From IMG/VR virus record IMGVR_UViG_3300005611_000001: DNA of 64,000 nucleotides; one strand, given 5' to 3'. The translations under genes and the position numbers were made by a program. Positions 52,611-55,929 of this stretch are shown one piece after another; position 1 is the first letter of the stretch; each line of letters begins with the position of its first letter. Under the pieces are notes generated by a model, which saw nothing but the letters and a program-made list of their open reading frames with translations, was not told the origin of the DNA and did not search any database. The DNA comes from a virus. Its lineage: Duplodnaviria > Caudoviricetes.

Positions 52611-53201
52611 ATGTCTATTGCAGATTTTTTTGAAAAAAATAGATATGCTTATATCAAAAATGCCCTGCCTTTACATAAGTGTGATCAGTATGTAAAGGCA
52701 TTGTGGGCTTCAAAATCAATGAAAAATTGTGCTCAATGTCCAGGCTCTACATCATCATATACCGAGTGGCCGTTGGCTAGAGTACACTACAAAATGGTTC
52801 CTGAACTATCAAGCATTTTAGGCATTGATCTTGCACCAACATACGTTTTTTCTAGAATATATAAAAAGGGCTCTGATTTGGAAAAACACAAAGACCGCCC
52901 TTCTTGTGAGATATCTACAACTTTGACTTTGGGTGTTTCAAATCCAAATTCAAATTGGCCAATATACTTTCAAACAAAAGACGGCAACAAGGCATTTAAT
53001 ATTTCTGTCGGTGATATGGTCGCGTACAGAGGAGAAGAATTGTGGCATTGGCGCGATCCATTACAAGATGATTGGCAAGTACAAGTCTTTTTTCATTTCA
53101 TTGACAAGAACGGTCCTCATTATCCAAAATTTTTAAATGATCGAGGAAGAAACGATAGAATGTATGAATTGGTTGCTGAAAGTTTAAAATTAAATACTTG
53201 A
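52611..53201 (+). CDS. 2OG-Fe(II) oxygenase
   Basis: RIYKKGSDLEKHKDRPSCEISTTL, GDMVAYRG...HWR, QVFFH. Confidence 0.85.
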   Translation: MSIADFFEKNRYAYIKNALPLHKCDQYVKALWASKSMKNCAQCPGSTSSYTEWPLARVHYKMVPELSSILGIDLAPTYVFSRIYKKGSDLEKHKDRPSCEISTTLTLGVSNPNSNWPIYFQTKDGNKAFNISVGDMVAYRGEELWHWRDPLQDDWQVQVFFHFIDKNGPHYPKFLNDRGRNDRMYELVAESLKLNT

Positions 53202-53499: not shown

Positions 53500-53571
53500 A
53501 TGAAAGCAGGTAAAGTTTGGGGTACTACTGATGACATTGTTCGGAGAACCGTTGGACAAAAAATCGATTGA
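53500..53571 (+). pseudogene. Truncated cupin-like gene remnant (MKAGKVWGTT...)
   Basis: Good RBS; N-terminus recalled from marine phage cupin proteins; frame closes after 23 aa. Confidence 0.45.
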
Positions 53572-53800
53572 CTCTGATCTAAAAGCCCTGTACTCTTCTG
53601 TGCAGGGCAAAGTTGATCGTCATCTAGTCGAAGCGCTGGCTGATATTCGAAATGGTAAAGACCCCGAGGTTGTGCTGCGTAAGTTCAGCCGACTTGCAAC
53701 AAACACTCTTATTCATGGCCCCACAAAAGTAATTCGCGATCAAGACAATCCTGAACTGATCAAAAAAATCATAGGTATTGAAAATGAAGATAAATCATAG
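53531..53800 (+). CDS. Stand-alone glutamyl-tRNA reductase dimerisation-like domain
   Basis: EALADIRNGKDPEVVLRKFSRLATNTLIHGPTKVIR matches HemA C-terminal L..G.DP..VL...A..LTNKLLH.PT..L. Confidence 0.65.
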   Translation: MTLFGEPLDKKSIDSDLKALYSSVQGKVDRHLVEALADIRNGKDPEVVLRKFSRLATNTLIHGPTKVIRDQDNPELIKKIIGIENEDKS

Positions 53801-54418: not shown

Positions 54419-54619
54419 ATGAAAAATCTAGTTGCGTTCGTCTGTCTTTTTGCCTCTGCTGGTGCTCTTGCTGTCACTGATTCTTATGTTGCTCGCCTGA
54501 ATGACCAAGGTGAGTACTGCGCTAAAATTAATGTTGGTATCGTTACCCCCTACTTCAAGACCAAGTGCTATACGCTTGAGCAGTGGGAAGAGAACGGTTT
54601 CACGGTCGAAGTTAAATAA
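54419..54619 (+). CDS. Small secreted protein with two Cys
   Basis: GGAGA RBS; signal peptide MKNLVAFVCLFASAGALA; YCAK...TKC.TLEQWE. Confidence 0.75.
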   Translation: MKNLVAFVCLFASAGALAVTDSYVARLNDQGEYCAKINVGIVTPYFKTKCYTLEQWEENGFTVEVK

Positions 54620-54640
54620 GAGGTTGCGATCAGATAATCA

Positions 54641-54874
54641 ATGGCAAACACATTTAAGTTTTATCTTCCTTTAATAGTAATTTTTGCTCTTTGCGTTTTC
54701 GGTCTGTTCGCGCCTGTAATCTACAGCGATGTGTACGGTGAGATTCTGAACAACTCACCAACGCTTTACATGCCGATGGTGAATGTTGATTATCTGACCA
54801 ATGAAATGTGCAATGATCCCACCAAACTGCACTATGTTCTTTGCGGTCTTGATGACTTGAATACTGTAGCATAA
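54641..54874 (+). CDS. Small membrane-anchored protein
   Basis: N-terminal hydrophobic helix. Confidence 0.6.
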   Translation: MANTFKFYLPLIVIFALCVFGLFAPVIYSDVYGEILNNSPTLYMPMVNVDYLTNEMCNDPTKLHYVLCGLDDLNTVA

Positions 54875-54884
54875 TCGGTTATAC

Positions 54885-55008
54885 TATATACTATAGAACG
54901 CACTGCTTTGATCTAGAAGTGGCAAAGGCTACAATCAGACTAAGATCCCTCCATTAGGAGGGTACGCGGGGGAGGATCCCGCAGGCAGTGCGTCTCTTTA
55001 GAGTATAG
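54885..55008 (+). ncRNA. Unassigned multi-stem structured element 1
   Basis: Closing stem acgcactgc(54898-906)/gcagtgcgt(54985-993); inner hairpins gtggc-aaag-gctac, ccctcc-atta-ggaggg, gcggg-ggaggat-cccgc. Confidence 0.55.
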
Positions 55009-55102
55009 ATTGGGCAGAGCGAACATAACTTGGAACATAAACTCGTTGCTTCCAAGTGACTGACCGATTCCTAAGCGAGGTGCGGAATCCTAGCAATCTA
55101 TA
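55004..55102 (+). ncRNA. Unassigned structured element 2 (junction with possible kissing loops)
   Basis: Closing stem tatagattg/caatctata; hairpins acttggaa/ttccaagt and gattcc/ggaatc; loops ctcgtt and agcgag complementary. Confidence 0.55.
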
Positions 55103-55104
55103 AA

Positions 55105-55197
55105 GTCCTAAGGATTTAAAATCCTGGGCAGATTAATCACCGTGCGTGAAACTCGTTTCGGTTTGATTAGCAGCGGGTGGAAGCCCCGCACCTTTTT
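55105..55197 (+). ncRNA. Unassigned structured element 3
   Basis: gtcc-aggat/atcct-gggc hairpin, taatca/tgatta arm, gcggg-tggaagc-cccgc T-arm-like hairpin followed by T-run. Confidence 0.4.
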
Positions 55198-55272
55198 AGA
55201 ATAGGCACTGAGTATGCTTAAGCATCAGTTAGTCCTGTAGAGTCGCAATCTTGGGCAACAGTGTCTGTTCTA
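55197..55272 (+). ncRNA. Unassigned structured element 4 (76 nt)
   Basis: 14-bp closing stem tagaataggcactg/cagtgtctgttcta with G-U pairs; inner atgc-ttaa-gcat and gtcc/gggc arms. Confidence 0.5.
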
Positions 55273-55274
55273 AT

Positions 55275-55580
55275 TTATTCGATGAAGCGGAGAGAAAGGT
55301 GATCTGGACAGAGGTTCAACTCCTCTCACCTCCACCAAAAGCACATACGCTGGATATGCAGATAGCATATTGAGACATAAGAAACATCAGGTATGTGCTT
55401 TTGATGGGGGTGTACTGGTTTCGACAGGTGCTAAGTATCAAAGTGGAGAATCGTCAAGCGCTGACGCTAAACAGAGCAACCTAAAATAAACGCAAACGAT
55501 GACGTTTATACCGAGGACTTTGCGCTAGCAGCGTAAACCTCGCGGGGTTCGCCGGAGCCTTGTTACCCAAGTCCGGCACT
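55275..55580 (+). ncRNA. ssrA: Circularly permuted (two-piece) tmRNA
   Basis: T-arm agagg-TTCAACT-cctct and CACCUCC-A-CCA end at 55337; hairpin intervening segment; 5' end GGGGGUG at 55406 giving G3-U70; pk1; tag ANDDVYTEDFALAA* at 55492-55536. Confidence 0.93.
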
Positions 55581-55599
55581 AATTCGGAGAAATCTACAA

Positions 55600-55866
55600 A
55601 TGAAACCATTCAGTCAATACATTACAGAGTATAATGATGAAACTCTTGTGAAGAAGATAAAGCACCCTAGTGGGACCGTTTTAATGATCTCTCGCTACAA
55701 GAACGGACCCGATGAAGGTAAGTACATTGTTCGTGTATCCAAGAGTAATTATGAACGTGGAAAGCAGAATCGCACGATGCGAGCTATACACGATAAGCCT
55801 CTCGATGCAGAAGCAGCCGTCGCCCTTTTTAATAAAAGAAAGAAATCGATCTGGAAGAAAAAATGA
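55600..55866 (+). CDS. Basic protein with capsid-targeting-like N-terminus (putative internal head protein)
   Basis: GGAGA RBS; MKPFSQYITE resembles T4 IP leader MKTYQEFIAE; Lys/Arg-rich. Confidence 0.6.
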   Translation: MKPFSQYITEYNDETLVKKIKHPSGTVLMISRYKNGPDEGKYIVRVSKSNYERGKQNRTMRAIHDKPLDAEAAVALFNKRKKSIWKKK

Positions 55867-55880
55867 AATCATTTCGACAG

Positions 55881-55929
55881 TTCTTCGCCTGGCGGCGTAA
55901 ACTTCGCGGGGTCGGCACTAATTCGGAGA
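55881..55929 (+). repeat. Degenerate, internally deleted second copy of tmRNA tag end and 3' tail
   Basis: gcgtaaac[c/t]tcgcggggt and cggcactaattcggaga repeat 55531-55548 and 55574-55590. Confidence 0.9.

Follow-up and report, generated by a model that had tools for sequence, protein, structure and literature searches.

The window described here is the whole stretch of DNA that was analysed, 64,000 nucleotides (nt) of the IMG/VR virus record IMGVR_UViG_3300005611_000001, and it contains between phage genes a gene for a circularly permuted transfer-messenger RNA (tmRNA, the product of ssrA). Read from the sequence, 5' to 3', the gene consists of an acceptor piece (55277-55337), a spacer (55338-55405) and a coding piece (55406-55590). 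ARAGORN labels 55245-55627 as a 'Permuted' tmRNA, places the 3' tRNA domain at 55299-55337 and the 5' tRNA domain at 55406-55432, and reads the tag peptide ANDDVYTEDFALAA, which is absent from the tags known to this program. RF04321 (tmRNA_permuted) is the sole Rfam family exceeding its cut-off within the window. It reaches 113.9 bits (E = 2e-21), where the gathering score is 47, and the entire model (positions 1-213) aligns to 55277-55536, with the T-arm and the D-loop-like element placed by the covariance model at high posterior probability; an anticodon arm is absent. The parts of the gene are as follows.

55277-55337, + strand: acceptor piece, 61 nt (RF04321 alignment, ARAGORN, pairing counts)
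55277-55306, + strand: P2 5' strand, within the acceptor piece
55310-55326, + strand: T-arm, with AGAGG at 55310-14, the 7-nt loop UUCAACU and CCUCU at 55322-26
55327-55333, + strand: acceptor 3' strand CACCUCC, followed by the discriminator A and CCA
55334-55337, + strand: ACCA (discriminator A plus CCA), encoded in the DNA
55338-55405, + strand: intervening spacer, 68 nt, presumed to be excised (fold and covariation)
55406-55590, + strand: coding piece, about 185 nt (ARAGORN; full-length RF01850 alignment, 55201-55595)
55406-55412, + strand: acceptor 5' strand GGGGGUG, in which G55408 pairs with U55331 (G3.U70)
55413-55424, + strand: D-loop-like UACUGGUUUCGA, coding piece
55425-55451, + strand: P2 3' strand, coding piece
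55452-56 with 55462-66, + strand: hairpin CGUCA/UGACG of 5 base pairs (bp) with a 5-nt loop, at the position of pseudoknot 1 (PK1); covaries
55492-55536, + strand: tag frame, with resume codon GCA, 14 codons for ANDDVYTEDFALAA and stop UAA at 55534-36 (ARAGORN)
55512-55542, + strand: helix 5 around the tag end and stop codon, CGAGG/CCUCG outer and UUUGCGCU/AGCGUAAA inner
55543-48 with loop 55557-62, + strand: candidate pseudoknot stem CGGGGU with GCCUUG (pairing only)
55551-56 with 55572-77, + strand: 3' hairpin GCCGGA/UCCGGC, 15-nt loop containing CCUUGUUACC; fits an element of the beta_tmRNA model
3' end of the coding piece, + strand: conserved tail CACUAAUUCGGAGA, its limit set by the identity blocks of relatives and by repeat D2

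The initial annotation had proposed a circularly permuted phage tmRNA gene and had named ARAGORN's permuted model as a check; the proposal is borne out by that program, by RF04321 and by the phage genes on either side. Its finer readings also hold. The acceptor piece with ACCA at 55334-37 does lie ahead of GGGGGUG at 55406, all coordinates agreeing with the sequence; G3-U70 is intact as G55408.U55331 and invariant in relatives; and ARAGORN returns the same tag at 55492-55536. The gene ends slightly further downstream than the 55580 given there. Relatives and environmental variants place its conserved limits at about 55277-55590, and the conserved block begins at 55275-55277 both in relatives and at an environmental deletion joint. 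Features looked for in a tmRNA are present in the coding piece: an alanine resume codon, a hydrophobic ...LAA end of the peptide, and a stop codon inside helix 5. The gene as a whole has every sequence feature required for charging with alanine and for tagging.

Relatives were collected by a 20-mer scan of IMG/VR, which gave 35 viral contigs (14/35 with ARAGORN-permuted tmRNAs), and by a degenerate tag pattern, which gave eight viral and eight metagenome contigs, every one with the identical tag. After removal of duplicates, 12 distinct sequences were aligned and pairs were counted on the helices in window coordinates. All of these relatives are uncultured viral and metagenome contigs. Sequencing runs that contain parts of the stretch share few words with it (0.13-0.37), and the habitat is named only as 'aquatic'.

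The helices are kept across this alignment, and many of their pairs change in a compensatory manner. In the acceptor stem (P1), 84/84 cells are paired and 2/7 pairs are compensatory, with the third pair being G.U in all 12 sequences. The T-arm is paired in 60/60 cells, four of its five pairs being compensatory, and the four segments of P2 are 89-100% paired (compensatory in 5/16 pairs). Helix 5 has 60/60 and 94/96 cells paired with one compensatory pair among 13, and the 3' hairpin has 62/72 cells paired with compensation in five of six pairs. The candidate pseudoknot stem CGGGGU/GCCUUG is paired in 71/71 cells and never varies; since its pairs are invariant, this candidate 3' pseudoknot has no covariation support. 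When the 3' partner was shifted by 1-2 columns as a control, pairing fell to 0-82% (mostly 20-70%), below the observed value for every tested helix. RNAalifold, given nine sequences, independently recovers the tRNA-like domain and the spacer stem with 16 compensated pairs.

No segment of the gene is better conserved than the tag frame. It is 96-100% identical across relatives, even where the scaffold around it is only 34-66% identical. For example, L148 and L150, two relatives with the same tag, retain 34% identity to the window in a P2 strand and 66% in the PK1 region, and still 96-100% in the tag frame. The sites that vary in this frame (ACC/ACU, GCA/GCC, UAU/UAC) are all synonymous third positions, the stop codon is either UAA or UAG, and the sole insertion or deletion is one additional in-frame GCA. 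The synonymous change ACC/ACU is compensated by CCUCG/CCUCA past the stop codon, across helix 5. The resume-codon context and helix 5 are retained in 12/12 relatives. Compensatory pairs together with synonymous-only changes in the tag therefore show that purifying selection acts on the structure of the RNA as well as on the peptide it encodes. Such selection speaks for a working tmRNA and against a relic or a pure decoy.

The 68-nt segment between the two pieces folds back, as the initial annotation had seen. Acceptor stem and spacer together form one long hairpin of -40.7 kcal/mol, compared with -17.0 +/- 3.5 for 200 shuffles (z = -6.9). Its core is a 13-bp spacer stem, 55336-48 with 55391-55403, which includes C55336 and A55337 of the CCA and extends the acceptor stem of the precursor. 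This stem is paired in 147/156 cells with compensation in 8/13 pairs, despite a spacer identity of only 34-51% in most relatives. The spacer is too short to hold an open reading frame (ORF). Two other viral two-piece tmRNAs resembling the beta type have longer spacers, about 200 nt in L019 (3107-3593) and about 120 nt in L025 (2201-2624), compared with 68 nt here.

Lineage was judged by profile scores, since the three subtypes of two-piece tmRNA align unreliably outside the tRNA-like domain; the published beta-type structure is represented by its Rfam model. The best model of the clan for the window is beta_tmRNA (RF01850), with 81.9 bits (E = 4e-25) over its full length. The same-tag relative L148 reaches 117 bits, above the cut-off of this model, and the other viral permuted tmRNAs from the 20-mer scan reach 93-139 bits, except for one of cyanophage type that goes to cyano_tmRNA. 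Because the relatives had been fished with a beta-consensus word, an independent check was made with nhmmer profiles built from 66 bacterial beta-type and 29 alpha-type genes. The window scores 87.0 bits with the beta profile and 13.8 bits with the alpha profile. After removal of the shared 23-mer, the coding piece without its tRNA-like part still matches the beta profile (26.9 bits, E = 1e-10), as does the acceptor piece (20.8 bits, E = 7.5e-9), and neither has an alpha match. The 10-mer CCUUGUUACC in the loop of the 3' hairpin is common to many tmRNAs of Rhodocyclaceae (Azonexus, Dechloromonas, Thauera). By these sequence comparisons, the tmRNA of the window most probably belongs to the betaproteobacterial two-piece lineage rather than to the alpha or cyano type.

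It had been left undecided at first whether the permutation is host-derived or independent. Since the RNA belongs to the beta two-piece lineage, on the Rfam model and on our own profiles, the permutation would be inherited from that lineage, and an independent origin is disfavoured. A cellular donor was sought in 93 genome contigs with the 23-mer and in 401 sampled genomes of the order containing a beta-type lake metagenome-assembled genome. This search returned only matches to the tRNA-like domain and one match of 73% over 108 nt. The phage tmRNA thus does not appear to be a recent copy of any cellular gene among those searched, and its family has a history in phages long enough for close similarity to these cellular genes to have been lost.

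The tag itself is distinctive. ANDDVYTEDFALAA has 14 residues, four of which (DVYT/VYTE) are extra between the AND... and ...FALAA ends, and the RF01850 alignment accordingly has a 12-nt insertion in the tag of the window. All cellular beta tags seen have 10 residues and follow ANDE[RQNH]FA[LIVM]AA. The alpha tags sampled are 10-13 residues long (one has 22) and begin with ANDN (ANNN in one). The Caulobacter tag likewise has 14 residues. No searchable paper contains ANDDVYTEDFALAA.

From these observations, together with established tRNA and tmRNA biology, the following course may be proposed. The gene would be transcribed as one precursor, in which the acceptor stem is capped by the 13-bp spacer stem. 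Because the CCA end is buried in this stem, aminoacylation would require that 55338-55405 be excised. RNase P recognises the 12-bp stack of acceptor stem and T-stem, which has 7 + 5 bp here, and its cut would fall 5' of G55406. The other end would be trimmed to the encoded CCA at 55337 by an endonuclease and 3' exonucleases, likewise tRNA-processing enzymes of the host. The 61-nt acceptor piece and the coding piece of about 185 nt would then stay joined via the acceptor stem and P2. Host alanyl-tRNA synthetase (AlaRS) would charge the acceptor piece through G3.U70 and A73, and host SmpB and EF-Tu would deliver the molecule, in the infected cell, to ribosomes that have stalled on broken mRNAs. 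SmpB would have to come from the host because none is present in the window. Translation would resume at GCA 55492, append ANDDVYTEDFALAA and stop at the UAA in helix 5, and the ...FALAA end would act as a ClpXP-type degron. The likely benefit is that ribosomes are freed and truncated proteins recycled while mRNA is degraded during infection. Extra rescue capacity during mRNA destruction is the simplest reading of what the phage gains. A counter-defence role is also possible; no link to a toxin or to defence was seen in the neighbourhood of the tmRNA.

Taken together, the locus is best read as a functional ssrA gene of the phage, circularly permuted and of the betaproteobacterial two-piece type, with a probability of roughly 0.8. 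The data show the anatomy of the gene, its lineage, its place in a phage and the purifying selection on structure and tag; processing, charging, the use of host SmpB, tagging and benefit are what we infer from the gene. Several observations weigh against this reading. The score of 81.9 bits is 2 under the RF01850 cut-off of 84, and cellular beta tmRNAs reach 212-323. The tag module is near-invariant in nucleotides, which could partly reflect recent exchange between phages. SmpB was not found within the window by tblastn with two bacterial SmpB proteins, and function hinges on the SmpB of the host accepting the tRNA-like domain of the phage. Between the upstream terminator and 55277, the scan gave no sigma-70-like promoter. 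One RNA contig covers the acceptor piece, the spacer and the start of the coding piece, and it may be either precursor or DNA carry-over. Finally, a second stem of PK1 was not found when all helices of at least 4 bp were enumerated in five family members, none being both conserved and crossing.

The last point modifies the initial annotation, which gave PK1 as present. What stands at this position is a covarying 5-bp hairpin, CGUCA/UGACG in the window, CAUCA/UGAUG in L148 and L199, and CAGUC/GACUG in L146; the crossing stem that would complete a pseudoknot is missing from the enumeration. The pairing AGUG/C(G/A)CU was considered as second stem and rejected, as it clashes with P2 and no nucleotides are left for a loop across the other stem. 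In E. coli tmRNA a stable hairpin can stand in for PK1, and a version with the hairpin only need therefore not impair function.

Two relatives are mosaics. In L146 (5530-5980) the spacer is 100% and the leader 94% as in the window, combined with a longer PK1 region like that of L005-type viral tmRNAs. In L199 (420-776) an L148-type P2 is joined to a window-type acceptor stem. These segments suggest recombination, or module exchange, between phage tmRNA genes. A bolder proposal goes further: the resume context, the 14 codons and helix 5 would move between scaffolds as a unit, the lengthened degradation tag would alter handling by adaptor and protease, and the tail of the gene would be a recombination point for cassette swaps. 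As a whole this is speculative and unlikely to be correct. If it were true, the phage tmRNA would be a tuned takeover tool and a cassette dock, beyond extra rescue.

A related alternative, which refines rather than replaces the functional reading, is that the tmRNA works but is valued mainly for its altered tag, either through faster delivery to SspB/ClpXP or through diversion from host pathways. In the E. coli tag, delivery by the adaptor improves when a longer linker separates the determinants for SspB and ClpX. The 14-residue tag of the phage family, nearly invariant in nucleotides on diverged scaffolds, stands apart from the 10 residues of cellular beta tags; ARAGORN does not recognise it and it occurs in no searchable paper. 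However, other phage beta-like tmRNAs carry ordinary 10-residue tags, and the invariance may stem from constraints of helix 5 and from recent exchange. We regard this alternative as quite improbable.

Could the molecule instead be a decoy or inhibitor that binds SmpB, AlaRS or ribosomes of the host, with tagging only incidental? A parallel would be the molecule of mycobacteriophage DS6A that consists of a tRNA-like domain (TLD) only. Hudson et al. 2014 (PMC4131195) note strong inhibition of tmRNA by a molecule of the TLD-only kind. The intact tRNA-like domain, the lack of SmpB in the window and the missing second stem of PK1 would all suit a decoy. Yet a decoy would not need the resume context, helix 5 or a tag frame, and it is the tag frame that is best conserved in the whole gene, with synonymous-only changes and an in-frame indel. 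This possibility is therefore very improbable, and the functional reading is preferred. It is hardly credible that the locus is a functionless passenger captured from a host, or a structural processing or recombination site heading the downstream operon: the 3' tail is indeed duplicated around an inserted ORF, precedes different genes in relatives and supplies GGAG to the downstream ORF, and the gene is absent from most phosphoesterase-neighbour relatives and from the phage C48C1, but a decaying gene would keep neither its helices compensatorily nor its tag frame synonymously, no close cellular donor was found among those searched, and the virus is T4-like with no integrase among the window ORFs scanned (not all ORFs).

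Two-piece tmRNAs have been described in phages before. Buchholz et al. (2022) reported a two-piece ssrA in Melnitz, a phage of OM43 (Methylophilales), and found by ARAGORN 133 unique tmRNAs in 18,146 phage genomes, 53 of them two-piece and 50/53 of these marine or aquatic (PMC9004378). Their Table S1 includes HTVC008M, Mosig, phiCbK-like Caulobacter phages, roseophages and several cyanomyophages (PMC9004378). The initial annotation had implied novelty by taking only one-piece tmRNAs as established in phages, and this does not hold given the 53 cases already listed there. Melnitz and the pelagimyophages carry an alpha-type gene, and extra rescue capacity during mRNA destruction is the reading offered for Melnitz (PMC9004378). 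A 2025 paper on a tmRNA database, the source of the Rfam model that matches here, contains 79 bacteriophage sequences (PMC11915505).

The gene of the window resembles that of Melnitz-type phages in being a permuted ssrA in a lytic aquatic phage, mostly T4-like myophages, in its patchy occurrence ('common but not defining') and in having a protein gene directly after it. It differs in being of beta type, in lacking sequence similarity and in its different and longer tag. Some members of the Melnitz/pelagimyophage group also have a glutamine riboswitch in the 3' domain; none is present in the window, where a glnA-type (glutamine) riboswitch had no match in 54600-55900. One-piece phage tmRNAs (mycobacteriophage Bxz1 group, Bacillus phage G; PMC4131195) are likewise phage-borne ssrA genes that presumably work with the SmpB of the host, but their gene order is the standard one, they have four pseudoknots, and neither their sequence nor their hosts are related (PMC4131195).

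Counterparts are also found among cellular beta-type genes (RF01850; Azonexus/Dechloromonas, Thauera, Accumulibacter). In these the pieces of the gene follow in the order seen in the window, acceptor strand and D-loop likewise read GGGGGUGUACUGGUUUCGACAGG, a hairpin stands where PK1 would be, the tag begins with AND... and finishes with ...FALAA, and the loop of the 3' hairpin contains CCUUGUUACC. They differ in that their spacer is about 30 nt in the model consensus, compared with 68 nt in the window, and their tag has 10 residues, not 14. The window also lacks a terminal GC-rich terminator hairpin, the last hairpin of the model being largely deleted in the alignment, and the middle of its P2 pairs otherwise. 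The viral beta-like tmRNAs L005, L011, L019, L025, L008, L024 and L013 are of the same Rfam subtype (93-139 bits) and have the same stem-closed spacer architecture, but they carry 10-residue tags (ANDEVFALAA, ANDEKFALAA, ANDDNYALAA and others), another PK1 region and, in some cases, much longer spacers.

Among GenBank phages, blastn gives no match to the gene at E <= 1e-5 and, at E <= 1, only two 35-nt hits to the T-arm; no isolate therefore carries a relative. What appears to be new is modest: a beta-type family without GenBank phage relatives and with its own 14-residue tag. It adds to the two-piece tmRNAs of phages a family with 12 or more distinct members, each of them from an uncultured aquatic virus, and it creates no new category. 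As the family keeps every helix and has its own tag, it is a natural test case for what a phage gains from a tmRNA and for which parts of a tmRNA are dispensable, possible examples being PK1, here replaced by a hairpin, and the 3' pseudoknots, of which there is a single candidate.

The window comes from an uncultured aquatic T4-like myovirus, with the tmRNA lying between phage genes. Its proteins include a T4-type portal, major head protein, tail sheath, tail fibres and a gp43-type DNA polymerase, together with UvsW-like and DnaB-like helicases and an SbcC-like nuclease, and nearly all genes are on the + strand. The polymerase is closest to that of the Kyanoviridae record Phage C48C1 (56% amino-acid identity), and cyanomyophages are at about 49%. 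Neighbours of the tmRNA encode a phosphoesterase, a glycosyltransferase, a dCMP deaminase, SprT-like and SNase-like proteins, and small uncharacterised ORFs. In L023 the tmRNA is 98% identical and the adjoining phosphoesterase gene 83%; in L026 the upstream ORFs are 89% and the tmRNA 86% identical. When relatives were sought through the phosphoesterase, 15 on other contigs were without a tmRNA in the examined flank, and C48C1, the nearest complete genome by DNA polymerase, is also without one. The distribution of the gene is thus patchy. In the metagenome contig L195 (3617-7140) the surroundings differ from those in the window: a tmRNA with the same tag lies among six clustered tRNA genes (Arg, Ile, Ala, Thr, Pro, Arg).

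Upstream of the tmRNA, in the region 52611-53201 and 53531-53800, a ferrochelatase-like protein is encoded (PHROG 2954, E = 1e-44), followed by small ORFs without family matches. The first of these is a haem-related auxiliary gene; no photosynthesis genes were seen in the window. Also upstream of the tmRNA there are about 400 nt without an ORF (54875-55276) and without a match to any Rfam family. Its part 54990-55276 (287 nt) folds into several hairpins (z = -2.6), a long one at about 55199-55273 abutting the start of the tmRNA. The stretch 55230-55276 is unrelated sequence in most relatives and is shared, at 94%, only with L146, and one metatranscriptome contig skips 55103-55275. In L148 and L150, TGGTATAAT is seen upstream by eye; it is not present in the window. 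Three metatranscriptome libraries contain fragments of relatives' tmRNAs and of upstream ORFs, as assembled contigs, which show no ends, strand or level. Two further features flank the gene.

55173-55198, + strand: terminator-like hairpin with U-run, about 80 nt upstream of the tmRNA, ending the preceding non-coding unit (pattern scan)
55889-55929, + strand: degenerate second copy of the tmRNA 3' end (tag end, stop codon, tail) without the 25-nt 3' hairpin (direct repeats D1 and D2)

The second of these is made up of the repeats D1 (24 nt at 88%) and D2 (17/17 nt), which lie about 340-365 nt downstream of 55525-55590. The two copies of the tail bracket an 88-codon ORF at 55600-55866. L023 and an environmental contig are without the stretch from about 55574-55591 to 55912. 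The tail CACUAAUUCGGAGA leads directly into the ribosome-binding site of the next ORF, its GGAG serving that downstream ORF, and the same tail precedes different genes in different relatives. The tail of the tmRNA resembles a site for the insertion or exchange of small gene cassettes.

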